DNA of 64,000 nucleotides from an uncultured Acidimicrobiales bacterium. Its GTDB lineage: Bacteria > Actinomycetota > Acidimicrobiia > Acidimicrobiales > JANYDT01. Below, piece by piece: positions 282 through 60,353 of the stretch. The DNA lies in the NCBI GenBank assembly GCA_963763885.1, contig CAVXQD010000007.1, positions 559,919-623,918 of the forward strand, read 5' to 3'. Below the pieces are notes generated by a model. That model was not told the DNA's origin. It searched no databases and saw only the letters and a list, made by a program, of their open reading frames with translations. Every line of letters begins with the position of its first letter. Positions within the stretch are counted from its first letter, which is position 1. Both the position numbers and the translations under genes were made by a program.

Positions 282-412
282 GCGGCGCTCCTTGGTCGTA
301 AACCGTTGCGAACCATATCGGTTTCACGGTCGTGACGCTCACCGTATGCCCACAATCGGCCAGGACCAACTCGGTTTCACGTGTCGTTGGTCATGCGCGG
401 CCGAGCGGTGAA

Positions 413-522
413 CCCGCTGCGTGGGTGGCGGGTCCTGCCTCCTCCGTGGTTCCCTCCCACCGTGCTCGCTTCGCTGCGCGCGGCGGGCCCCTCCCGTCGG
501 GTCACCCCCCACCCACTCCGCT
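413..522 (+). repeat. solo copy of a ~110-bp GC-rich foldback repeat (family B)
   Basis: CCCGCTGCGTGGGTGGCGGGTCCTGCCTCCTCC...GGGTCACCCCCCACCCACTCCGCT. Near-identical copies occur at 53464..53690 (same orientation, 5' subunit amplified) and 55118..55228 (inverted). The 5' arm GTGGGTGG is complementary to the 3' arm CCACCCAC. It is preceded (395..413) by a 19-nt fragment of the family-A unit and followed directly by the family-A array. Confidence 0.85.
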
Positions 523-523
523 C

Positions 524-919
524 GACACGGGCGCGGCCGAGCGGTGAACGGAGGGACGGAGTGAACCCGAGGTGAGCAACCCATCAGACACGGGCGCGGC
601 CGAGCGGTGAACGGAGGGACGGAGTGAACCCGAGGTGAGCAACCCATCAGACACGGGCGCGGCCGAGCGGTGAACGGAGGGACGGAGTGAACCCGAGGTG
701 AGCAACCCATCAGACACGGGCGCGGCCGAGCGGTAAACGGAGGGAGGAGTGAACCCGAGGTGAGCAACCCATCAGACACGGGCGCGGCCGAGCGGTGAAC
801 GGAGGGAGGAGTGAACCCGAGGTGAGCAACCCATCAGACACGGGCGCGGCCGAGCGGTAAACGGAGGGACGGAGTGAACCCGAGGTGAGCAACCCATCAG
901 ACACGGGCGCGGCCGAGCG
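524..919 (+). repeat. tandem array, 6.3 copies of a 63-bp unit (family A)
   Basis: Unit is GACACGGGCGCGGCCGAGCGGTGAACGGAGGGACGGAGTGAACCCGAGGTGAGCAACCCATCA. Copies start at 524, 587, 650, 713, 775, 837 and 900 (partial). Copies 4 and 5 carry a 1-nt deletion (GGAGGGAGGAGTG); copies 4 and 6 have GGTAAAC. No spacers, so it is not CRISPR-like. It fills nearly all of the intergenic space between the SDR gene and the cNMP-binding gene. Confidence 0.95.
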
Positions 920-1833: not shown

Positions 1834-4458
1834 ATGTCAGGAGCACCTTCCGGCGAGCGTGCGCCTTCACTCAGAGACCGACTCCCGCCCCCAGGGAGCG
1901 ATCCGCTGGACGTCCTCGACGGCTTTGCTGCGTGGGCACACGAGACGGGTCGTCCGCTCTACCCCCATCAGGAAGAAGCGGGTTTCGCGCTCGCTGACAA
2001 GCAGCACGTGGTTTTGGCCACGCCCACGGGGTCAGGCAAATCGATGGCAGCGCTGGCCGGGATTGTCCTTGCGATGAACGCTGGCAAGCGGGCCGTGTGG
2101 ACGGCGCCCATCAAGGCACTGGTTGCCGAGAAGTTCTTCGAACTGATCGATCTACTGGGACCGGAGAACGTTGGCCTTGCTATTGGCGATGCCTCTATCA
2201 ACCGCGATGCGCCGGTGTTGGTGTGCACGGCGGAGGTGCTGGCGAACCAAGCGCTCGGTGTGACCGGGCAGGGGTATCACAACGATGGCCACGATTCATA
2301 TGGCTTTGCGTGCCTCGATGAGTTCCACTACTACGGCGATGTCGACCGCGGCTGGGCTTGGCAGGTGCCGCTGCTGGTGATGCATGAGTGTCAGTTCTTG
2401 CTGGCCTCAGCAACGTTGGGCGATGTCAGCCCGTTGGTGGCGGATCTGGAAACCCGTACCGGTCGCCCGGTGACCCGCATCACTGGCGTGACGCGCCCCA
2501 TTCCGCTGTTCCACCAGTTCCGCACCACGCCGGTCTCAGACAGCGTGCAGGCCGCCATCGAGCAGGGCCTGTTCCCCGTGTACTTGGTGCATACCAGCCA
2601 GGCTGAAGCCGTCGAGCGGGCCAGCGCGTTGGTCAGCCTTCCCCTCACCTCGCGTCCGCAGCGGGAAGCCATTGCGGCAGCCATCAGCACGGAGCGTCTC
2701 AACACAGGTTTCGGTCAAAACTTGGGCCGCTACCTGCGCAACGGCGTCGGCGTGCACCACGCCGGCATGCTCCCCCGTTATCGGCGGTTGGTCGAACGTC
2801 TCGCGGGAGAAGGGCTACTCCCTGTCATCTGTGGCACAGACACGTTGGGCGTGGGCATCAACATTCCCATCCGAACCGTGTTGTTCAGCGCGCTTACCAA
2901 GTTCGACGGTTCAAAGGTACGCACGCTGCGGGCCAGAGAGTTTCATCAGCTGGCCGGGCGCGCGGGTCGGCCTGGGTTCGACCCAGACGGCCACGTGTGG
3001 GCGCAGGCACCCGAGCACGTCATCGACAACGAACGTGCGCTGTCACGCGCTGGCGACGATCCCAAGGCAAGACGCAAAGTCAAACGGGCCGAGGCACCAA
3101 AGGGCTTTGTCCACTGGGACGAAAAGACATTCGAACGTCTCATTGCATCTGAACCAGAGCCGCTGATCAGCCGGTTCAAGGTGACCGCCGACTTGGTGGC
3201 CTCGGTGCTTTCTCGCCCCGACGGCCCCGACGCGTTGAAGAACCTCCTCACCACCAACCACGACACCGAAACCCGTAAGCGCACACATAGACGCCGGGCA
3301 ATTCACATCTATCGCTCCCTCGAGGCGGCCGGGGTTGCGGAACGCCTTCGCGACAGCGCCGGCAAATGCGCCGGCGTTCGCATCGGGTCTCTTGTCAACG
3401 ACGGCACCGACGATGTTGAACGCGTCCGGTTCACGTCCCCACTTGGGCCGTTTGCCATTGAAGCCATCAGCACCTTCGAGCAAGACACCATCATCTACCC
3501 GCTCGATGTGATCAGCGTCATCGAGGCCATCGTCGACAACCCGATGGCCATCCTCATCGCGCAGGAGAAGCAGGCGCGGTCGCAAGAGATCGGGCGGATG
3601 AAGTCCGAGGGCATCGAGTACGAAGAACGCATGGCGCTCCTGCAGACCGTCACGTGGCCGAAACCGCTTGACGAAGAGTTGCGTGACATGTTCCTCATCT
3701 ACAAGCGCTCGCATCCATGGACAGAGACCTGGCCAGAGCCAAAGAGCATTGTGCGCGAACTGCTCGAAACGGGCGAAACGTTTGCCAACTACGTCAAGCG
3801 CTATGGCATCGAGCGCAGCGAGGGCTTGCTGCTTCGTCACCTCACCGATGTCTGGAAGGCGCTGGACAAGTCGTTGCCGTTGGACGCCTACACCGAAGAA
3901 GTGGAAGACGTCATCGATTGGTTGGCCGCGCTCATCCGATCTATCGACGCCAGCCTGCTTGAGGAATGGGAACGGCTGTCAGGCCTTGTCCCCGCGGATC
4001 GCCAGGCGCCCACGGCACCCCGCCAGGTCGATGCCGGTCCACCCAAAGCTTGGAAGACCGCGGTCCGCACAGCGGTGTTCGGCTGGGTGGAGCTGCTGGC
4101 CATCCGACGCCACGACCGCCTCGGCGACCGCACCGGCTGGAGCGTCGACACGCTCAACGAGACGATGGCGCCCTACTGGGCAGAGTACGACTCCATCGCG
4201 ACCGATGCTGATGCACGGTCGGCAAGCTTCTTCTCGCTTACGACTGGGCGCGGTCGAGCGGTGAACGGAGGGATCGGAGTTGAACCCGAGGTGGAGCAAC
4301 CCATTGAATTCGGCGAAACGGATTGGAGCATCACTCAGCGGCTGGCAGATCCCGCCGAAGACGGCGCGTGGCAGATGACCGTAGTGATGCCGGTGGCTGC
4401 TTCCATCGAGGCAGGGCAACCAATTCTGCGCCTAATCTCAATTGCACCGTTGCCCTAG
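1834..4458 (+). CDS. DExH-box (Ski2-like) helicase with DUF3516-type C-terminal region
   Basis: Motif I ATPTGSGKS, motif II LDEFHYY, motif III SAT, HHAGMLPRYRRLVE...GTDTLGVGINIP, and motif VI QLAGRAGRPG. The long C-terminal extension is typical of actinobacterial DUF3516 helicases. Start uncertain. Confidence 0.85.
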   Translation: MSGAPSGERAPSLRDRLPPPGSDPLDVLDGFAAWAHETGRPLYPHQEEAGFALADKQHVVLATPTGSGKSMAALAGIVLAMNAGKRAVWTAPIKALVAEKFFELIDLLGPENVGLAIGDASINRDAPVLVCTAEVLANQALGVTGQGYHNDGHDSYGFACLDEFHYYGDVDRGWAWQVPLLVMHECQFLLASATLGDVSPLVADLETRTGRPVTRITGVTRPIPLFHQFRTTPVSDSVQAAIEQGLFPVYLVHTSQAEAVERASALVSLPLTSRPQREAIAAAISTERLNTGFGQNLGRYLRNGVGVHHAGMLPRYRRLVERLAGEGLLPVICGTDTLGVGINIPIRTVLFSALTKFDGSKVRTLRAREFHQLAGRAGRPGFDPDGHVWAQAPEHVIDNERALSRAGDDPKARRKVKRAEAPKGFVHWDEKTFERLIASEPEPLISRFKVTADLVASVLSRPDGPDALKNLLTTNHDTETRKRTHRRRAIHIYRSLEAAGVAERLRDSAGKCAGVRIGSLVNDGTDDVERVRFTSPLGPFAIEAISTFEQDTIIYPLDVISVIEAIVDNPMAILIAQEKQARSQEIGRMKSEGIEYEERMALLQTVTWPKPLDEELRDMFLIYKRSHPWTETWPEPKSIVRELLETGETFANYVKRYGIERSEGLLLRHLTDVWKALDKSLPLDAYTEEVEDVIDWLAALIRSIDASLLEEWERLSGLVPADRQAPTAPRQVDAGPPKAWKTAVRTAVFGWVELLAIRRHDRLGDRTGWSVDTLNETMAPYWAEYDSIATDADARSASFFSLTTGRGRAVNGGIGVEPEVEQPIEFGETDWSITQRLADPAEDGAWQMTVVMPVAASIEAGQPILRLISIAPLP
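4242..4306 (+). repeat. family-A repeat copy embedded in-frame in the helicase CDS
   Basis: GACTGGGCGCGGTCGAGCGGTGAACGGAGGGATCGGAGTTGAACCCGAGGTGGAGCAACCCATT matches the 63-bp unit with a few indels. It is translated as GRGRAVNGGIGVEPEVEQPI without breaking the helicase frame. Confidence 0.85.
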
Positions 4459-4529: not shown

Positions 4530-5469
4530 ATGTTCAACCGTACTTTTCGTCTCTCCGTAGCTGCCGTGGTGTGTGCCGCCGCGGCGCTGCTCCCTCTGTC
4601 CAGGGTGGCTGCTGCCACCTCATCAACCGCACCGACTGAAGCTGCGAAGAAACCAAAGATTGGTTACGGACGCCAGCTTTCTGCTGAGGGATTGTTGGCG
4701 TTGAAGCCGACTCTGATCATCGGCAACGACGACTCGGGACCTGCCACGGTGTTAGCCCAATTGCGGTCCAGCACGGTTCCGGTTGTCATCGTCCCGGCGG
4801 GTGACGAGTGGCAGATGCAGGAAAGAAGATTCGTTGGGTTGCCCAAGCCGTTGGTCTGGCCGACTCTGGCGACGCGCTCGCAGACAAGGTCGAACGTGAC
4901 ATCGCAATTGTGCAGAAGCGGTGGGCGGCCTCCAGCAAAAGGATGGACCCGAAAGCGGTTTTCTTGTATTTGCCGGGCCCAAAAACGCAGCTACTCGGCG
5001 GAGCCGGCACCAGGGCACACGCCACGCTCAGCGCTGCCGGCGCTGTTGATGCTGGCGCCTACCTCGCCGGAGTGAGTGGATATGTTCCGATTACGTCCGA
5101 AGCGTTGGTGCGAGCAAAACCGGACACCATTGTGGTTTTGGAAAACGGCTTGGCTTCGGTCGGCGGTATCGATGGACTGCTGAAGATCCCCGGCATCGCA
5201 CTCACCCCAGCGGGCCAGAAGCGTCGCGTGTTGGCTTTCGATGATCTGAAGCTGCTTGCGTCACGGATGGAACACCCCACCACGCATTGTGCGCTGAGGC
5301 CTTGTCGGACGCCTACCGCTGCAGAGTCAGAGTCCTCGAGCACCCACTCGACGAGGGCTCCGTGCTCGTCGTTCCTGCCACCAATCACGCACAACATCAC
5401 CGACCTTCGCTACGCACCGAAGGTTGCAGCCCAACCTCACACCTCATCGCATTTGGAGAACAACAATGA
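4530..5469 (+). pseudogene. hmuT: heme/hemin ABC transporter substrate-binding protein (HmuT-like), disrupted
   Basis: A signal peptide is followed by KIGYGRQLSAEGLLALKPTLIIGNDDSGPATVLAQLRSSTVPVVIVP (ORF 4530..5075). Homology continues in another frame as KKIRWVAQAVGLADSGDALADKVERDI...ITSEALVRAKPDTIVVLENG...RRVLAFDDLKLL (ORF 4808..5596). It probably shifts again near 5255 into ORF 5287..5469. There are at least two frameshifts (~4806 and ~5255), and the first ~50 residues of the mature N-lobe appear to be missing. Confidence 0.65.
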
Positions 5470-5644
5470 ACACGTCCAGCACGTTGCAAAACCCAGCAAC
5501 ATCAGACAACACCAGCGGTTCCGCTGGATCGGGAAATTCAGGGGTTGCGGGAGAACGGCCCGGTCAACGCGACCCGCACCGCGACGGCGGTTTTGATCCG
5601 CAACCCAATGTGGCGTCCTTTCCCATGCCGAGCTCACCCGCACC

Positions 5645-8630: not shown

Positions 8631-8656
8631 TCGCCCTCAGCGCTGGACTGTACCCA

Positions 8657-8696
8657 CTAGAACCCGCTAGAACCCGCTAGAACCCGCTAGAACCCG
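8657..8696. repeat. 4 x 10-bp tandem repeat CTAGAACCCG
   Basis: Perfect copies at 8657, 8667, 8677 and 8687, between the convergent GNAT and PhyH genes. One of the CTAG units supplies the PhyH stop codon (8679..8677). Confidence 0.95.
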
Positions 8697-19403: not shown

Positions 19404-19762
19404 GAGTAAAAGGGTCCCTTCCCGGACAACACCGGAACAGCACGTTTGACCAACTCGCGCAACGGTTGGCAGACGTGCAAAATCAGCTGGAAATGTTGCT
19501 TACGCAACGGCCGCTGATCCGGCGGAACGGGGAAGTTCCGGAGCCTCGGTGCGCGCTTCGGACAATAGCGAGCATCATCAACATTGGCGAATGGCAGCCG
19601 GGAAATTTCCACGGAGTTGACGGGAATTAACGCCCGTTAACGCAGAATTGCCCGCCCCATACCACGAGGCGTGGCGGAGGCGAGCAATTTGACTTTGATT
19701 TCGGACCTGAATCCGGGACCTGAAATCCAGGAGCTGAATCCCGGACCGGAAGCCGGAGTCGG

Positions 19763-24672: not shown

Positions 24673-25215
24673 TTAGCCGAGAGCAGCAGAACCGGCGAAC
24701 GGGGCCGGGTCGCCAGGGGCAGGGAGCACAGGCCCTGTCCAGTGCATCTCTTTGGCAAGGACGTCGGTGAGGTCCTGCCATGTGTCTGGGTTCCAACCTT
24801 CGGCCGCATTGACCACTGCACCGCTGTTATCCACATGCACCAGCGCAGGGAGCGTTGTGAAGGCGAACGCCTTGACAATCGCACGATCTGGGTCTGGGAA
24901 GGTGAGAATGCGAGTAGCGAACGGGCCGAGGAACTGCTTGGCCTCATCGGCGGTAGCCCCCGCGACGACGAACGCCACACGGCAGTCGGCCTGATCGAAC
25001 GTCTCCAAGATGCGCGCCGCGGTCTTCAATACCCAAGCGCTTTCGTTGGTGAATGGATCAACCACCACCGCGAGGAGCTGGTATTGCACGAGGTACGCGG
25101 AAAGCGGGTAGGACTTTCCGTTCAACGACGTGAGTTGGAGATCGGTGGAGGGGTTGGCAGCCACGGGTCCCCAAGCTAGCTGACGCACCACGACCCAACC
25201 TTCACCTTCAGACAC
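24673..25215 (-). CDS. hypothetical protein (possible thioredoxin-like fold, no CxxC)
   Basis: 180-aa ORF with coding-like composition. Layout is loosely TlpA/redoxin-like (LTSLNGKSYPLSAYL...LLAVVVDP...). The GTG start lies inside the 25199..25267 repeat. Confidence 0.4.
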   Translation of the reverse strand: MSEGEGWVVVRQLAWGPVAANPSTDLQLTSLNGKSYPLSAYLVQYQLLAVVVDPFTNESAWVLKTAARILETFDQADCRVAFVVAGATADEAKQFLGPFATRILTFPDPDRAIVKAFAFTTLPALVHVDNSGAVVNAAEGWNPDTWQDLTDVLAKEMHWTGPVLPAPGDPAPFAGSAALG

Positions 25216-25267
25216 CTTCAGACACCTTCAGGCAACCTTCGGGCAGGCTTCAGGCAACCTTCAGGCC
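25199..25267. repeat. 6-7 phased copies of CCTTCAGRCA(A)
   Basis: CTTCA/G cores at 25200, 25206, 25216, 25226, 25237, 25248 and 25259 (spacing 10-11 bp after the first). Located in the divergent intergenic region, overlapping the GTG at 25215. Confidence 0.85.
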
Positions 25268-34305: not shown

Positions 34306-36201
34306 CTACCAGGAGCCGCCGCCACCGCCGCCCGAGGACCCGCCACCGCCAAAGCTGCCGCCACCGAATCCACCAGAGCTGTTGGAAGACCGTGCGGCGG
34401 CCTGCCGTGCGGCCTCGGCTGCTGCACCGGCTGCGATGGATTGGTTCAGCGAACGGTCGAAACTGTCAAGCGCTCCTTGCAGGGAACTGCCGCCCCGCCC
34501 CCAGCCCATCGGGTAGAAGCCAGGTCCGTAACCGCCCATTGGCCCGAAATACGGAACGGTGGGTTGCACGCCCATCTTCTCGAACGTCTTCACCCATTTG
34601 TCCACGTTGCCGAACACCATGGCGTACGGCAGATATTCGGCAAACAGGTTCTGCTTCTCCGCAAGTTTCAGCCGATCCCCTTCGCCCGCATCGAACAGCA
34701 GCTCAAACCCGCGGAGACGAGCCTCGACGCGGCTGCCTGTTGCAGTGCGCACCGGCATCGTCTGAGCGGCCGCAAGCAGACCCAACCCAAACACCGCTAG
34801 CGCGATTCCAACAAGTCCGAACCGCGACGCACCTGCAAGAAAGAACGTCAGTGCACCGCCGGCGACCAGCGACACCAGGCCAGCGGCCCGCCAACGCGCC
34901 CGCACGTGCACCGGATTTGCAACCCACCAGCCCTTTTCCACTGCCTCGTTCAGCAGGAGGCCGCGCACGCTTGCCATCTGTGACGCGAGCTGGGTTCGGC
35001 CCGACAGGTTTTCCAGGGTGACCGTGTTGGATCCGTCAGAGAACAGCACGTTGAGCAAGTTCTGTTCATTGGCGGTGATCTGCTGGGACGTTTTCACCGG
35101 CTGCTTGCCCGTCAGTACCAGTTGGTAGTCCTTCCCGTTGTCGCCCAGCGGCTCGATCTGCAGCACGCCACGAGCCGCAAGGTCAACCACCGTTGCGCTG
35201 ATGCATTGCTGCGAAGATTCGCCAGAGCGAGCCGGTTCAACTAGTCCGGGACGAATACCTTCGGGTGGCTCAAACTCCACCGGCGAAGCAATACGTTCAC
35301 GTAGCTTTCGGGGCCGCTCCTGATCGCCCGGCGTTCCCAACGATCCGCCGCTGGCGAACACCCGGTCACGTCCCTTCCGGCCGGTGACAAACGCTCCAGC
35401 AACCGCACCGATGAGTGCAAGAGCACCGACTGCGCCGGGAGCGCCGGAAGTTGTGAAACCGTCAGCGATGGTGTGGGGAGTCTCCAATAGCGGTTCTCGA
35501 TACGCAATGCTGCTGTCGACCGGAACTTCCACCTCGATGCCGATGCCGCTGGTACGAACCGCAACACCGTTGGCCGTTGGGGTGACTTCACAGTTCGCAG
35601 ACGAGTCACCCCGGAGGCAAACCGGGATGCCCTTCGCTCGGACTGGAACCTTGATATCAATTGAGACTTCGTCCACCGGAACGGTCCAGCCTTCGCCGAC
35701 CGCCACGAATTGCAGCAGCCCATCGACAACAGCACGTTCGATGCGGTAGCTGATCTCATAGACATGGCGACCTGTGACGAAGATCTGAGGATTGCCAATC
35801 CGCAGGACGGAGACGTTTCCCTCGGTTGAGATGTTGGTGGAAGTAGGTGCCCCGGTGGGTGAGGTGACGCGAAGCCAGTCAACCTTGGTCACACGAGTCC
35901 ATGAGCGACCTGAATCCGGCACCTTCACCAGGTCGTTGTCCACGACGAATCGGTCGGGGACGTACCGAAAGATGCCCCGTTTGGAGTTGGCGCCGAAGTT
36001 CCAGACGATGCGCTCGCTGACAAGCAGGTCACCGTTGGGCTGCACTTCAGCAAGGACGGTGAGTTGCTCCAGCCGTTCTTCGAACGAGGTTTGCGCCAAG
36101 GGCTGGGCGGAGACTGTTCCAGAACCTGCCCCGAACGTGAGGAACAAGACCACACAGGCCAAGGCACCTCGAAGCAAAACGGACAGACTTAATGGGCGCA
36201 C
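34306..36201 (-). CDS. DUF2207 domain membrane protein with Gly-rich C-terminus
   Basis: Signal/TM, a large extracytoplasmic domain and 3 TM segments. YLPYAMVFGNVDKWVKTFEKMG is typical of DUF2207. The tail is GGFGGGSFGGGGSSGGGGGGSW. Confidence 0.65.
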   Translation of the reverse strand: MRPLSLSVLLRGALACVVLFLTFGAGSGTVSAQPLAQTSFEERLEQLTVLAEVQPNGDLLVSERIVWNFGANSKRGIFRYVPDRFVVDNDLVKVPDSGRSWTRVTKVDWLRVTSPTGAPTSTNISTEGNVSVLRIGNPQIFVTGRHVYEISYRIERAVVDGLLQFVAVGEGWTVPVDEVSIDIKVPVRAKGIPVCLRGDSSANCEVTPTANGVAVRTSGIGIEVEVPVDSSIAYREPLLETPHTIADGFTTSGAPGAVGALALIGAVAGAFVTGRKGRDRVFASGGSLGTPGDQERPRKLRERIASPVEFEPPEGIRPGLVEPARSGESSQQCISATVVDLAARGVLQIEPLGDNGKDYQLVLTGKQPVKTSQQITANEQNLLNVLFSDGSNTVTLENLSGRTQLASQMASVRGLLLNEAVEKGWWVANPVHVRARWRAAGLVSLVAGGALTFFLAGASRFGLVGIALAVFGLGLLAAAQTMPVRTATGSRVEARLRGFELLFDAGEGDRLKLAEKQNLFAEYLPYAMVFGNVDKWVKTFEKMGVQPTVPYFGPMGGYGPGFYPMGWGRGGSSLQGALDSFDRSLNQSIAAGAAAEAARQAAARSSNSSGGFGGGSFGGGGSSGGGGGGSW

Positions 36202-36233: not shown

Positions 36234-36306
36234 GACACACGGGCGCGGCCGAGCGGTGAACGGAGGGACGAAGTGAACCCGAGGTGGAGCAACCCATCAG
36301 ACACGG
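36234..36306 (+). repeat. family-A repeat, 1.1 copies, in a divergent intergenic region
   Basis: GACACACGGGCGCGGCCGAGCGGTGAACGGAGGGACGAAGTGAACCCGAGGTGGAGCAACCCATCA followed by GACACGG. It shares the GAGGTGGAGC variant with the helicase copy. Confidence 0.85.
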
Positions 36307-36328: not shown

Positions 36329-38044
36329 ATGTCCGATTTCAATTCCGCCGCCGTTCATGAAGCAATCGCCGCAGCAAACCCCGATGCCCCCTGCATTATC
36401 TGGCGGGGTCGCACGTGGACGTGGGCCGAAACAACCGAACGGACCAGACGATTCGCCAACTACCTGTTGACTCGCGGCGTCACGGTTCCGGTGGAACGTG
36501 AGTACCTCGACGGGCATGAGTCCGGCCAAGACCACCTTGGCATCTACTTGTTGAACGGCAACGAGTACCTGGAGTGCATGATCGGCGCCTACAAGGCCCG
36601 TGTTGCGCCGTTCAACGTCAACTACCGCTACGTGGCAGAGGAACTGCGTTACCTACTGAACGACGCCAACTGCAAGGTGATCGTGTACCACGCTCGGTTC
36701 GCCCCAACTCTGGCTGAGATCCGCGACAGCCTGCCCAACTTGGAGTTCCTCATCCAGGTGGCAGACGACTCTGGCAACGATCTGCTTCCCGGCGCGGTGG
36801 ACTACGAAACGGCGCTCGCGTCGGCATCGCCCGAACGACCCGAGGTGCAGGTGATGGGAGGCGATTGGGCCCCCGATGACCTCTACATCTTGTACACCGG
36901 CGGCACTACTGGAATGCCGAAGGGCGTGCTGTGGCGTCAGACCGATATCGCCAACGTGGCCATGGGTCTGCACCCTGCAACGGGACCGCACACCAGCTTC
37001 GAAACTATCGAAGAGATTGTCACCAACGCCAGTGGGGCAGGACGCCTGGTCATCCTTCCTGCTGCCCCGTTCATGCATGGTGCTGGCCAGTGGATTGCGT
37101 TTCGGTCGTGGCATACCGGCGGACCGGTCGTGATTCAGAGCGTTGTCGACCGACTTGATCCCGTTGACTTACTTGAGCGGTGTGTTGAGCATGGCGTGCA
37201 GTTCCTACAGATCGTGGGCGACGCGTTTGGCCGGCCATTGGTAGACGAGATCGAACGGGCGGCTGCCGCGGGAACTCCATACGACTTGTCGAAGCTGACG
37301 TATGTGTTGTCCGGAGGTGCCGCACTCAGTGCCCCGTTGAAGAACCGGTTGATGGACGCCCTTCCTCATGCGCTCATCCTCGACGGCGTTGGTTCTTCCG
37401 AAGCCGGCGGCCAGATGGGGCAGGTTTCCACCAAGGCTTCTGGCCAACAGGCCACCACCGGAACATTCCCGAGCACACCAGGAAACTTCGTATTGGCTGA
37501 GGACTTGTCCGGCCCCTTGGACCCTGGCCATGACGGCATTGGTTGGCTGGCGAAAGCCGGTCGGCTTGCGCTTGGATATTTGGGAGACGCCGAGAAGACG
37601 GCCCGTACATTTCCCACGGTGGCCGGAGTGCGGTATTCCGTTCCGGGCGACCGGGCTCGGCTGTTGGAACCCACAGAGGCTTCGATGGGTGCGCCGATGA
37701 TCGAACTACACGGCCGGGACTCGGTCACCATCAATTCGGGCGGCGAGAAGATTTTTGCCGAAGAGGTCGAGGCAGCGATGTTGCATCACGGCGACGTCTA
37801 CGACGTCACGGTTGCGCCACGGCCGAGCGAACGATGGGGCAACGAAGTGGTTGCCATCGTGCAGGTTGCCGAAGGCACCAATCCCACTGACGCCGACCTC
37901 CTGGCCGTCGCCGCCGAGCACATCGCCCGGTACAAGCTGCCGAAGTCGATCGTCCGGGTGGCAAAGATCCAGCGGTCCCCGTCTGGCAAGGCCGACTACC
38001 GCTGGGCCAAAGAAATCGCCGCCACCACAACCCCCGAGGCGTAA
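36329..38044 (+). CDS. AMP-binding acyl-CoA synthetase (FadD-like)
   Basis: MSDFNSAAVHEAIAAANPDAP..., ILYTGGTTGMPKGV (AMP-binding motif I), YLGD, and SGGEKIFAEEVE...YKLPK. The ATG at 36329 was chosen; the track start at 36284 lies inside the repeat. Confidence 0.85.
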   Translation: MSDFNSAAVHEAIAAANPDAPCIIWRGRTWTWAETTERTRRFANYLLTRGVTVPVEREYLDGHESGQDHLGIYLLNGNEYLECMIGAYKARVAPFNVNYRYVAEELRYLLNDANCKVIVYHARFAPTLAEIRDSLPNLEFLIQVADDSGNDLLPGAVDYETALASASPERPEVQVMGGDWAPDDLYILYTGGTTGMPKGVLWRQTDIANVAMGLHPATGPHTSFETIEEIVTNASGAGRLVILPAAPFMHGAGQWIAFRSWHTGGPVVIQSVVDRLDPVDLLERCVEHGVQFLQIVGDAFGRPLVDEIERAAAAGTPYDLSKLTYVLSGGAALSAPLKNRLMDALPHALILDGVGSSEAGGQMGQVSTKASGQQATTGTFPSTPGNFVLAEDLSGPLDPGHDGIGWLAKAGRLALGYLGDAEKTARTFPTVAGVRYSVPGDRARLLEPTEASMGAPMIELHGRDSVTINSGGEKIFAEEVEAAMLHHGDVYDVTVAPRPSERWGNEVVAIVQVAEGTNPTDADLLAVAAEHIARYKLPKSIVRVAKIQRSPSGKADYRWAKEIAATTTPEA

Positions 38045-42430: not shown

Positions 42431-42472
42431 CAGTTCGCTGAGATCAGTTCGCTGAGATCAGTTCGCTGAGAT
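42431..42472. repeat. 3 x 14-bp perfect tandem repeat CAGTTCGCTGAGAT
   Basis: Copies at 42431, 42445 and 42459, starting 2 nt after the GGDEF gene stop and ending 14 nt before the stop of the convergent GlsB gene. Confidence 0.95.
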
Positions 42473-42485
42473 CGGCTTGACCAGC

Positions 42486-53463: not shown

Positions 53464-53690
53464 CCGCTGCGTGGGTTGGCGGGTCCTGCCCCTTCCGTGG
53501 TCCCGCTGTGTGGGAGGCGGGTCCTGCCTCCTCCGGCCCCTTCCCACTGCGTGGGAGGCGGGTCCTGCCTCCTCCGGCCCTCCCACTGCGTGGGAGGCGG
53601 GTCCTGCCTCCTCCGGTTCCCTCCCACCGTCCTCGCTTCGCTGCGGGCGGCGGGGCCCTCCCTTCGGGTCACCCCCCTCCCACTCCGCTG
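53464..53690 (+). repeat. family-B repeat with 4 tandem 40-43-bp 5' subunits
   Basis: The subunit CC(R)CTG(Y)GTGGG(W)GGCGGGTCCTGCC(Y)C(Y)TCCGG... occurs 4 times. It is followed by the common 3' part CCACCGTCCTCGCTTCGCTGCGGGCGGCGGGGCCCTCCCTTCGGGTCACCCCCCTCCCACTCCGCTGG. Confidence 0.9.
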
Positions 53691-53836: not shown

Positions 53837-55034
53837 ATGGGGGCGGCGGTCGTAGACATCACAGACGAATTGCTTGCCGGGTTGGGCCGGTTGTTGGAAT
53901 TTGTCGATTCTGGGCGGGTTGGGCTGGAGGATGTTGCTGGTGTTCGGCGGGTGTTTGAACGTGCAGATCTGGCGTTGACTAAGACTGTTGCTTGCACGGC
54001 TGGTGGGACGTCGTTTAACGCGTTGGGGTTCCGGGATGTTGGTGATTGGTTCGCTGCCGCGACTGGGGCGCGTCGTGGTGAGGGCCGGGCACGGTGCCAA
54101 CGGGCGAAGCTTCTTGTGTTGCTTCCGCTGGTTGATGCTGCGGTTACTGGCGGGAAGTTCGGTTCGTCACATCTGGCATGTCTTACGGTTGCGGTGACGA
54201 GGGAACGTGAACTGTTAGCTGTTCGGGATCAGCAGGTGTTTGTTGATTTCGCTGCGATGTTGGACGCGTCACAATTCGCCCGTGTCGTGAACCGGTGGGT
54301 TGCGTTGGCTGATGATGAACTCGGGAGACCCCACCGCGGCAGATGATGCTCACACGGCCCGTCGGCTGCAGCTTTCCCAATTGTTGGACGGGACATGGCG
54401 AATCAACGGTGTCCTTGACCCTGTCGCTGGTGAGGCCGTGCAAGCCGCGTTGGCCGCAGCGATGAAACCTGACGTTGACGATCTCCGGAGCCCGGGGCAA
54501 CGACGCGCTGACGCGCTCGTTGATGTGTGCTTGGAATCTCTGGCGAACAGTGACCGGCCGTCGGTCGGCAACGAACGCCCGAACGTCAACGTCGTGTTCC
54601 ACGCAGCCGACGGTTCAGCACACACAACCAACGGCTGGTTCCTGCGGAACTGGGAACTTTCCCAAGTGTTATGCGATTCGACAATCACGGCGGTGGCTGC
54701 GACGTTGAATGGTGACGTGTTCGACGTTGGAACCCCGGTATCGGTCATCCCGACCAGGAACCGCAAAGCAGTCACCATCCGTGACCGCGGTTGCCGGATG
54801 GGTGGCTGTAACCAGCCAGCACGGTTCTGTGAGATCCACCACATCCTGGAACGCGAAAACGGTGGAACCCACGAACTTCCCAACCTGGTCATGCTCTGCC
54901 GCTACCACCACCGAGAACTCCACCGGAGAGGCGTCAAACTCCACTGGCAAGACACAACGCTGATAGCGGTATACCCGAACGGCGCAGCCATCCACGGCCC
55001 ACCCCCACCATCAACCCACCCCACCCTCCTCTAA
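53837..55034 (+). pseudogene. DUF222 / HNH endonuclease (13E12-repeat-family-like), single frameshift
   Basis: ORF 53837..54346 holds the DUF222 N-terminal part (...FARVVNRWVALADDELG). ORF 54300..55034 continues in the +1 frame: DPTAADDAHTARRLQLSQLLDGTWRINGVLDP...RDRGCRMGGCNQPARFCEIHHILERENGGTHELPNLVMLCRYHHRELH (HNH). The frames rejoin if one nt is removed around GGGAGACC (54323..54330). Confidence 0.75.
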
Positions 55035-55117: not shown

Positions 55118-55257
55118 CCAGCGGAGTGGGAGGCGGGTGACCCGAAGGAAGGGGCCCGTTCGCGCGCAGCGAAGCGAGCACAACGGGAAGGGGCCGGAGG
55201 AGGCAGGACCCGCCACCCACGCAGCGGGCACAACGGCGGAGCAGCGGGACCACGGCG
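55118..55257 (-). repeat. family-B repeat, inverted copy
   Basis: The reverse complement of 55118..55228 reads CCCGCTGCGTGGGTGGCGGGTCCTGCCTCCTCCGGCCCCTTCCCGTTGTGCTCGCTTCGCTGCGCGCGAACGGGCCCCTTCCTTCGGGTCACCCGCCTCCCACTCCGCTGG. It aligns along its whole length with 413..522. Confidence 0.9.
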
Positions 55258-58898: not shown

Positions 58899-60305
58899 TC
58901 ATGGTGCAACATACCCAGCTGCAGCGACACCTGCGCTGTATCCGGTTGACCAACATCCCTGAAGCAAGTAGCCGCCGGTGGGTGCTTCCCAGTCCAGCAT
59001 CTCGCCGGCAAGGAACACCCCTGGGTTCCGGAGCAACATGCCAGTGTCGTCAATGGCCTGGCCAGCGACTCCACCGCTTGACGAGATCGCACGTTCGAGT
59101 CCTGCCACGCCGATAACAGGAACCGGCAATCGATGCACCAGCGCAGCAAGGGCCGCAAATTGTTCCGCCGCTGGGCGTTGGGCCACGTCACGCGCCCCGC
59201 ACTCCAGCATCAACCCAATGGCAGCAGGAGACAACCCTGCCTTGCGGAGGCGATTGGAGAGCGAGTCACCTGCGCGCGCTTTGCTCAGCGCCCGTTCGGT
59301 GTCGGCCACCGAAACGTCTGGCCGCAGGTTGCACACCAGCGGGCTTCCGTCGCGTAACGCCGGGCTGAGCGTATACACCGGGCCGCCCTCCAAGCCGGAG
59401 CGTGTCACAACAACATCGCCAACGGTGGTGCGGTCACCGCACATCAGCGCGACGTTCTTGATGGGCTCGCCCTCATAGCGACCAAGGAACACGGCGCTCC
59501 AGGCGATGCGTGCTCCGACGTTGGACGCCCCCAAGGCGTGGGTGGCAACACTTGCGTCTTTGAACGTCTTTACCCATTCACCGTCTGACCCCGTGCGAGG
59601 CCAGCTCCCTCCGCCCAAGGCAAGTAGCACGGCCCTGGCTTCGATCACTTCTCGTTGTGACGACCTCCGCCCAACGCCGTTGAGGACGACCCGATGTGAG
59701 GCTGCGGCGGTGGGTTCGGTGGAATTTGGTGTGCCGATCATCAGCGCGCTGGCAATATCGGCTCGCCACTCGGTGGTCACGTCAACGCCCATCGCTGCAA
59801 GCCTGCTCAGCCAGGCGCGCAGCAGTGGCGTGGCTCGCATCGAGGCCGGAAAGACACGGCCGCTGGTTCCCACAAACGTTTGTTCACCTAGGTCGTCGGC
59901 CCACAAGCGCAATTCGGCTGGCGGGAATTGCTCAACGCAACTTCGAACATATGCAGCCGCAGTCCCAGAGAATTTCGTGAGCAAATGGGTGACCGGCTCG
60001 TCATTGCTGAGATTGAGACCACTACGACCGGCCAACAGGAACTTGCGTCCTGGCGAGCGTTGCGCGTCGACCACACGGATCTTGGCCCAGGGGGCTGCAG
60101 CGGCAGCCCGTTCGGCGGCGATCAACCCCGCCGGCCCTCCACCGATGACAAGCACATCGACAAACAGATGGACGCGACCGTCCAATTCTTCAGTGAAGGG
60201 ATGGTTCCCAGTTGTCGCTGCGCTGTTTGTCATGTTCGGATTCATCAGGTTCGGATTCATCATGTTCGGATTCATCATGTTCGGATTCATCATGTTCGGA
60301 TTCAT
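58899..60305 (-). CDS. BaiN/HI0933-family NAD(P)/FAD-dependent oxidoreductase with a repeated N-terminal (MNPNM)n extension
   Basis: VLVIGGGPAGLIAAERAA, GRKFLLAGRSGLNLSN, FVGTSGRVFP, and GEMLDWEAPTGGYLLQGCWSTGYSAG. The N-terminus MNPNMMNPNMMNPNMMNPNLMNPNM is encoded by the 15-bp tandem repeat. The true start is uncertain. Confidence 0.75.
   Translation of the reverse strand: MNPNMMNPNMMNPNMMNPNLMNPNMTNSAATTGNHPFTEELDGRVHLFVDVLVIGGGPAGLIAAERAAAAAPWAKIRVVDAQRSPGRKFLLAGRSGLNLSNDEPVTHLLTKFSGTAAAYVRSCVEQFPPAELRLWADDLGEQTFVGTSGRVFPASMRATPLLRAWLSRLAAMGVDVTTEWRADIASALMIGTPNSTEPTAAASHRVVLNGVGRRSSQREVIEARAVLLALGGGSWPRTGSDGEWVKTFKDASVATHALGASNVGARIAWSAVFLGRYEGEPIKNVALMCGDRTTVGDVVVTRSGLEGGPVYTLSPALRDGSPLVCNLRPDVSVADTERALSKARAGDSLSNRLRKAGLSPAAIGLMLECGARDVAQRPAAEQFAALAALVHRLPVPVIGVAGLERAISSSGGVAGQAIDDTGMLLRNPGVFLAGEMLDWEAPTGGYLLQGCWSTGYSAGVAAAGYVAP
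60231..60305 (-). repeat. 5 x 15-bp tandem repeat ATGAATCCGAACMTG (plus a degenerate sixth unit upstream)
   Basis: Plus-strand units CATGTTCGGATTCAT at 60231, 60261, 60276 and 60291, and CAGGTTCGGATTCAT at 60246. A unit carries up to two in-frame ATG codons (nine in the array; the 60246 unit has CTG in place of one). Confidence 0.95.
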
Positions 60306-60353
60306 ATGTTCGCAGTACTTCCGTTGGGTGGTTGACCTCTAGGCTTCTGAGCT

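Follow-up and report, generated by a model that had tools for sequence, protein, structure and literature searches.

A 63-bp tandem array beside an SDR gene as one locus of a hairpin-free dispersed repeat family in a small group of Acidimicrobiia

Most models for the mobility of small repeats rest on palindromic structure. REP/BIME sequences are imperfect palindromes of 21-65 nt which form a GC-rich stem-loop. The MIRUs are units of 40-100 bp which occupy about 40-50 places in mycobacterial genomes, lie at gene boundaries and contain ORFs overlapping the flanking genes (Supply et al. 1997, summarised in PMC3184786 and PMC12548453). Imperfect inverted repeats together with 4-nt direct repeats have also been described for them. 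The RPEs are palindromic elements of about 100-150 bp that are found in frame in many Rickettsia genes (Ogata et al. 2000, summarised in PMC10969869).

The 63-bp tandem array analysed here, located at positions 524-919 (plus strand) of a 64-kb stretch of DNA which is called the window throughout, is a locally amplified copy of an approximately 65-bp, hairpin-free dispersed repeat of a small Acidimicrobiia group. The repeat was designated family A, and we class it as a previously undescribed, small selfish repeat that colonises gene boundaries and coding loops. The reading of the array as one locus of a lineage-restricted, non-autonomous, non-palindromic selfish dispersed repeat family is given a probability of about 0.7. 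By analogy, the MIRUs are its closest match for array behaviour and the RPEs for coding behaviour. As in the MIRUs, the units fall in the 40-100-bp range, occur both singly and head to tail at tens of loci in a high-GC genome of actinobacterial type, in part overlap or replace stops and starts at gene boundaries (TGATG junctions, the SDR stop and starts of the MGCST... type) and show filled and empty sites between relatives; the mobilising enzyme is known for neither. In contrast to the MIRUs, family A resides in Acidimicrobiia, lies also in frame deep inside coding regions, lacks inverted repeats, has no clear duplication of fixed length and shows no coupling to a downstream start at the window array, and the scan of 185,579 species genomes with an exact 18-mer word of the family gave no Mycobacterium match.

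The likeness to the RPEs consists in the presence of a small repeat in frame in unrelated housekeeping genes, with a conserved peptide, mostly in one frame and at positions that fit the fold (an inter-strand loop in a helicase, a variable loop in SufC). However, family A is 63-69 bp long, non-palindromic and less structured than shuffled sequence, and its relatives are MAGs, whereas the RPE hosts are obligate intracellular bacteria. The RPEs are not known to form tandem arrays. With the MITE and REP elements family A shares its short length, non-coding origin, multi-copy and non-autonomous nature, insertion polymorphism and occasional in-frame gene fusion, but it has neither terminal inverted repeats nor a stem-loop; its flanking direct repeats measure 2-21 nt, are often imperfect and overlap the conserved core. 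The neighbouring family-B element with its 18-nt arms does fit the MITE class, which provides the contrast within one locus.

The array was recovered by TRF with a period of 63, 6.3 copies (a copy number based on one assembly), 98% matches and a score of 764, in agreement with the first-pass annotation of this DNA except that two of the units are 62 bp long. The consensus proposed there occurs unchanged at 524, 587 and 650, and at 837 with a single mismatch, while shuffled sequences are expected to give 0 matches; the GC content of the window is about 61%. When cut at GACACGGG, the units are 63, 63, 63, 62, 62 and 63 bp long and are followed by a 20-nt restart at 900-919. Units 1-3 are identical, unit 4 has lost a C in GGGACGGAG and carries a G>A change in GGTGAAC, the same C loss is seen in unit 5, and unit 6 shows G>A at full length. 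Since the two variable sites form four combinations across the units in a fixed order, the array appears to be real and shaped by unequal exchange rather than by assembly stutter. An assembly artefact might be suspected from the breaking of short-read MAGs at these repeats, where many matches fall at contig ends; against it stand the fixed order of the four combinations and the location inside a 2.23-Mb contig, and we regard it, together with a tRNA-derived or CRISPR-like origin of the unit, as very improbable.

The array is the right-hand part of a larger block, 395-919, which consists of an orphan 19-mer, a family-B element and the array itself. The left edge is formed by the orphan 5' fragment of family A, GCGCGGCCGAGCGGTGAAC, at 395-413 (plus strand), recognised by its exact 19-mer match and by alignment to an empty site in a relative. 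It abuts the family-B element directly after GGTGAAC. This nested, hairpin-forming element (414-523, plus strand) has 18-nt terminal inverted repeats at 416-433 and 504-521, and its folding z-scores were -1.5 and -2.1.

The empty site was found in GCA_043756315.1 (L055), in which the cNMP-binding gene, the SDR gene and the helicase gene follow in the same order and the helicase is 87% identical. In the window the gap between the start of the cNMP-binding gene (279-281) and the stop of the SDR gene (897-899) is 615 bp, the size given before for the distance between these two minus-strand genes; however, repeats do not fill the whole of it as had been claimed, since 282-394 is native intergenic DNA conserved with L055. 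In L055 the gap measures 111 bp, corresponding in the alignment to window 282-394, and all of 395-919 is missing there. The window SDR ends ...VEVDGGSRSLGRARV (...GGSRSLGRARV), and the L055 SDR ends ...VEVDGGSRSL*. The empty site and the comparison of the SDR ends indicate that the block landed at the SDR stop codon, and the alignment shows an insertion that took place after the split from the nearest available relative. As a result the SDR has gained five residues (GRARV) and a new TGA, the repeat-derived terminus lying at 897-919 on the minus strand, while the native 113 bp upstream of the cNMP-binding gene is intact. The last partial unit had been credited with both the final SDR codons and the stop; the tail is indeed encoded by it (900-919), but the TGA corresponds to the TCA at 897-899 which ends the preceding full unit, unit 6. 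In all likelihood the array is a neutral insertion that was amplified recently. The native spacer also carries a near-palindromic sequence, GCGAACCATATCGGTTTC (300-330; about 3005-3030 in L055), conserved between the two genomes, which may be a candidate regulator binding site.

Within the window, family A occupies three loci. The first 28 nt of the unit recur at 4246 and 36241, a 19-nt piece being present at 395-413, and nhmmer bounded the two single copies at 4245-4312 and 36240-36306, which confirms the single copies reported previously. The copy at 4246-4311 lies within the helicase gene. The other one (36234-36306, plus strand), whose core is flanked by GACACACGG ... GACACGG, is intergenic and is situated between two divergent genes, 34306-36201 on the minus strand and an acyl-CoA-ligase-like gene with its ATG at 36330 on the plus strand. 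Alignment of 44 copies gave a conserved core of 57-60 nt, (C)GGGCGCGGCCGAGCGGTGAACGGAGGGA(T)CG(G/C)AGT(T)GAACCCGAGGTG(G)AGCAACCCAT, which is followed by a semi-conserved linker of about 7 nt, after which the unit's own 5' end starts again. This restart measures 2-9 nt in single copies and 11-21 nt in arrays, where it repeatedly ends at GGTGAAC or no more than 2 bases from it (L002, L006/L011, L050). The linkers of the arrays are private: CAGACAC in the window and in L006/L011, CAGACGC in L002, GAGATAC in L005, CAGGTAC in L042, CAAGCAC in L050 and CAGACTC in L058. Small indels distinguish three subtypes, of 66 nt, of 65 nt and the 63-nt type of the window array.

In order to find further members, one genome per species (185,579 species genomes) was scanned with the exact 18-mer GAGCGGTRAACGGAGGGA. 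This gave 53 stretches, 27 of them in three Acidimicrobiia MAGs (18 in GFS_12196, 8 in OTE_78_metabat_325 and 1 in VAR_78_metabat_618); a profile search showed the other 26 to be single chance matches in unrelated taxa, with only about 20 nt matched. The sample codes GFS, OTE and VAR presumably denote glacier-fed stream metagenomes. Many of the MAG matches are no more than 250 nt away from a contig end and contain two or more tandem units, as expected if arrays break short-read assemblies, and the census is biased by this breakage as well as by the exact 18-mer that it required. A peptide search brought up divergent members with GAGTGGTGAAC, namely a single copy in GCA_965191555.1 and a tandem of 2 x 66 nt on a JGI contig; as these stand outside the 18-mer matches, the exact-word census undercounts the family. 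The search with the doubled 22-mer peptide returned 5 candidates only and missed even the window's own helicase, and is therefore uninformative on spread. Two scans of JGI metagenome contigs, with a 20-mer and a 21-mer, gave 0 matches, and in two scans of viral contigs one chance 18-mer match was seen in which the second half of the unit was absent. The three window loci, with copies in at least 5 other assemblies, thus bear out the view of a dispersed family as opposed to a local duplication. The best-named relatives of the helicase belong to Ilumatobacter, Desertimonas and Acidimicrobiia MAGs. The family had not been recognised in the first reading, and our searches of Rfam and of the literature on Acidimicrobiia or Ilumatobacter repeats found no description of such a family either. 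The similarity of copies is 0.83 between genomes and 0.84 within them, and at the DNA level the orthologous host genes are about 20-25% divergent; selection acting on a function of the sequence itself is another possible reason for the near-identity of the core in different species.

In the 63-bp unit of the window, TGA interrupts every plus-strand frame and one of the minus-strand frames, so that four of the six frames are closed. The closed minus-strand frame is the one used by the SDR, with the SDR's own TGA; only two minus frames are open, and not all three as had been stated. The idea that the plus-frame stops are a design feature was dropped, because about 0.5 stops per frame are expected by chance at this length and GC. 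TGA occurs in sense frames 2 and 3 of every subtype, sense frame 1 being closed in the 63-nt array unit of the window only and open in the other two. In the 66-nt subtype, GGGATCGGAGTTGAAC...GGTGGAGC, the open sense frame reads GRGRAVNGGIGVEPEVEQPIG and all three antisense frames are open. The linker CAGACAC yields an antisense TGA in the window array unit and in the 65-nt type, which the 66-nt type does not have. As a consequence of these stops, a reading frame that runs into a unit is in most cases closed within 5-12 codons. The antisense ATG of units with a CAGACAC-type linker lies within a TGATG overlap of stop and start, and on the minus strand of the window array such a TGATG is present at every unit junction. 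Judged from the reading frames, ribosomes reaching the SDR stop could travel along this series of short ORFs as far as position 339, but since the series ends about 55 nt short of the start of the cNMP-binding gene, no coupling to it is apparent at the window array.

The two open minus frames, which run through the 63-bp units and produce ORFs of 41-146 aa across the array, might be taken for a real repetitive protein gene on the minus strand, e.g. the ORF at 339-779. However, the 62-bp units shift the frame so that no ORF spans the array, GC is flat over the codon positions (about 0.7 / 0.7 / 0.7), the longest ORF continues through the unrelated B element, the peptide search gave only short ORFs derived from the repeat, and the block is absent in L055. 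Such a gene is hardly credible.

Searches for a structured or regulatory role of the unit gave negative results. Single units and dimers, the folding of which the first-pass annotation had suggested, and also the single copy with its flanks and the 66-nt subtype were no more stable than shuffled sequences on either strand (z from -0.2 to +1.8), and no terminal or internal inverted repeats were found in the unit. Rfam returned nothing for the whole window at gathering thresholds and, for 280-1000 at E<=10, only a meaningless miRNA match. The resemblance to a tRNA T-arm and acceptor end, which had been based on a TTCA motif and would support a tRNA-derived unit, could not be substantiated, as ARAGORN found no tRNA and Rfam detected none even at the relaxed threshold. 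A CRISPR array was rejected because the units stand head to tail without spacers. A further possibility is that the array acts in cis, as a battery of protein-binding sites or as a UTR module for the cNMP-binding gene or the SDR gene, the single copies forming a regulon. Its position about 240 bp upstream of the cNMP-binding gene start and downstream of the SDR, the strong conservation of the core across genomes and the three TGAAC-like sub-motifs in each unit would agree with this. However, in the closest relative that shares the gene order the array is missing and the spacer retains its native 111 bp, the unit occurs inside unrelated housekeeping genes and fused to gene ends in both orientations, a scan of 1-2000 detected no promoter- or terminator-like sites in the array, and the unit has no RNA structure; a cis-acting role is thus considered improbable. 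Our reading is that family A is selfish DNA and serves neither as a functional RNA nor as a site of regulation.

Many copies are located inside genes. It had not been remarked in the first annotation that the copy it placed at 4242-4306 is an in-frame insertion in a gene: this 66-nt copy (4246-4311, plus strand) lies in the sense direction in the DEAD/DUF3516 helicase gene (1834-4458), as established by protein and DNA alignments. It adds 22 residues, G805-F826 (GRGRAVNGGIGVEPEVEQPIEF), which are absent from 12 relatives, and compared with L055 and L054 the DNA contains a clean 66-nt insertion between conserved flanks. The AF2 model of the helicase is poor overall (mean pLDDT 56.8), with a confident C-terminal domain, in which 806-827 is the sole low-pLDDT stretch, between the strands 800-805 and 830-838; in this model the insert is a loop between two strands. 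A second example is SufC, in which OTE_78 carries the insert in a variable loop, and the SufC of GFS_12196, the 260-aa protein P0124, which appears to come from the window's own genome, and the structures 2D2E and 2D3W are without it. Removal of the element together with an 8-nt duplicate restores the length of the orthologs.

Three pairs of filled and empty sites are thus available (n=3): the SDR/cNMP spacer against L055, the helicase against L055 and L054, and SufC. All-against-all BLAST of the flanks gave mostly repeat-to-repeat matches and no new orthologous pair. The insertions are lineage-specific in each genome, which argues for recent movement. In the MAGs, in-frame sense copies of 66-69 nt were found inside Aminotran_5, TP_methylase/MazG and WD40 genes as well as in the ABC_tran gene of SufC just described, and others in genes for a Sacchrp_dh_C protein (saccharopine dehydrogenase) and an Ala_racemase_N/D-Ser-dehydratase protein. 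In L052 an antisense copy lies in frame between the zinc ribbons of a PP2C phosphatase, which rules out that all coding copies have one orientation. Seven of the 8 internal coding copies are read in the same frame, with a predicted peptide such as AVNGGIGVEPEVEQPIEFGETDWSITQR. Coding context was assigned from Pfam and homolog alignments, a crude classifier based on GC3 and open frames being unreliable in high-GC DNA.

Other copies form the ends of genes. The DUF4230, DAO oxidoreductase, RraA-like and DUF4126 genes continue in frame 2 into a sense copy, where they terminate with ...GAAER*. With antisense copies the terminus is ...GRARV* or ...GRARA*, as in the window SDR and an XdhC gene. Three other genes, for a GT2 glycosyltransferase, an alpha/beta-hydrolase and a purine nucleoside phosphorylase (PNP), appear, from their predicted N-termini, to start at the antisense ATG with MGCST.... 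In all, the repeat supplies the stops of the SDR and 5 other genes and, as it appears, the starts of 3 genes.

This distribution may be explained by tolerance. Purifying selection would leave those copies that lie at gene ends and the in-frame 66-nt copies in surface loops. At the 3' ends of genes the damage would be limited by the TGAs of the unit, at the 5' ends the antisense ATG would serve as a start codon, and inside genes the 66-nt subtype, with its sense frame 1 open, would add a Gly-rich acidic loop of about 22 residues. The arrays probably grow in place, through unequal exchange or through slippage during replication, with the direct repeats on either side of a founding copy as the substrate. 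This would explain why linkers are private, why arrays terminate in partial units and why the longest restarts are found in arrays.

The movement of the family is the weakest step of the proposed explanation. New copies would be laid immediately upstream of host sequence that resembles the 5' end of the unit, the likely route being template switching or microhomology-mediated joining from a tandem donor rather than a transposase acting on inverted repeats; alternatively, a dedicated enzyme may act in trans. No mobilising gene for family A was identified in the 64 kb of host genome read. Host sequence after the linker agrees with the unit start at 6.2 of 15 positions against a background of 4.6 +/- 1.7 (n=23; about 5.9 without L042), and in SufC the downstream GGGCGCG represents the host's own Gly-Arg codons; these two observations favour copying of one period guided by short homology. 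The GGGCGCGG at the 5' end of the core belongs to the element, since copies have it even when it is missing from the downstream flank. Arrival of a 66-nt unit at in-phase Gly-Arg codons would explain why 7 of the 8 internal coding copies share one frame. We tentatively propose that family A is currently active without a hairpin or an inverted-repeat transposase and copies one period from tandem arrays into GGNCGN (Gly-Arg-type) sites that resemble its own 5' end, a proposal that we hold to be doubtful rather than probable.

The counter-evidence consists of 8-10-bp flanking repeats with locus-specific bases, which lead to a serious though unlikely rival, a miniature element mobilised by a transposase with a GC-rich target (approximately ...CCGGGCGCG) and a target-site duplication of 8-10 bp. 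Each copy would recreate the preferred target, so that new copies would land head to tail and form arrays. Such direct repeats are seen in L007 (TGGGyCCGGG), L001 (CAAACACGGG / CCAACAGGGG), L028 ((A/T)(G/A)CGGGAGCG, including a private A variant), L021, L051 and at window 36234. The 7 nt upstream of copies resemble the linker above chance (2.8/7 vs 1.8), and the ortholog length regained by SufC on removal of element and 8-nt duplicate fits a target-site duplication as well. However, terminal inverted repeats are absent, the flanking repeats vary from about 2 to 21 nt with no fixed boundary between repeat and core, and they are often imperfect although the cores are 95-100% conserved. Moreover, most in-gene copies show no duplication of the linker (1/7 matches), the three empty sites have no GGGCGCGG target, and the 13-21-nt restarts of arrays cannot be target duplications.

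If copying guided by short homology is the true mode, the 66-nt period would automatically place a ready-made loop of 22 residues in frame into essential proteins, and the tandem arrays would be both product and source of copies. Small repeats would then have a distinct way of moving, and apparently free-living bacteria with compact genomes a natural source of new protein loops. Whatever the route, family A rewrites gene termini, in the SDR here and in at least 8 genes of relatives, and adds about 22 residues to proteins such as SufC, so gene callers and homology pipelines will mis-handle its sites. The repeats break short-read MAG assemblies, and the arrays offer variable-number markers for strain typing of an uncultivated lineage. 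MIRU-like arrays and RPE-like invasion of coding regions are united in one small non-palindromic element, and a complete census in a closed genome could show how such elements move and how protein loops originate.

Several other repeats and genes were observed in the course of the analysis. Family B is GC-rich, about 108 nt long and bounded by 18-nt terminal inverted repeats; it forms a long imperfect hairpin (z about -2), and its copies in the window are at 415-522 (plus), 53584-53689 (plus) and 55120-55226 (minus). The copies at 53.6 and 55.1 kb are inverted and bracket about 1.4 kb containing a gene for DUF222 and an HNH endonuclease (54300-55034), the N-terminal part of which seems to lie in another frame at 53837-54346. 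The pairing of DUF222 with HNH is known from the mycobacterial REP13E12 family. From this arrangement family B looks like the ends of a DUF222-HNH mobile element, and the solo copy beside the array like a miniature derivative. At 53467-53627 about four tandem sub-repeats of 39-41 bp (CTGCGTGGGAGGCGGGTCCTGCCTCCTCCGG...) correspond to the first arm of B, amplified just upstream of the full element. Short tandem repeats unrelated to family A were noted at 60230-60312 (15 bp), 8652-8696 (10 bp), 25204-25266 (11 bp), 42431-42473 (14 bp) and 19703-19756 (13 bp), with 3-6 copies across all five. A periplasmic/ABC substrate-binding-like gene at 4530-5596 is split over two frames, 4530-5075 and 4808-5596, and is either a frameshifted pseudogene or the product of an assembly indel error.

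Outside the window, four tandem copies of the 12-nt GCGTAATCACCG lie at 1100-1150 of L058, immediately upstream of the divergent 2 x 66-nt array. In GFS_12196 a third repeat (L004, about 560-650; L059, 13200-13286) matches in both orientations with 89% identity over 86 nt, which points to a palindromic element of MITE type that neighbours a copy of family A. The same genome carries at 3320-5878 of L059 a SufB gene with an intein that contains a LAGLIDADG homing endonuclease domain.
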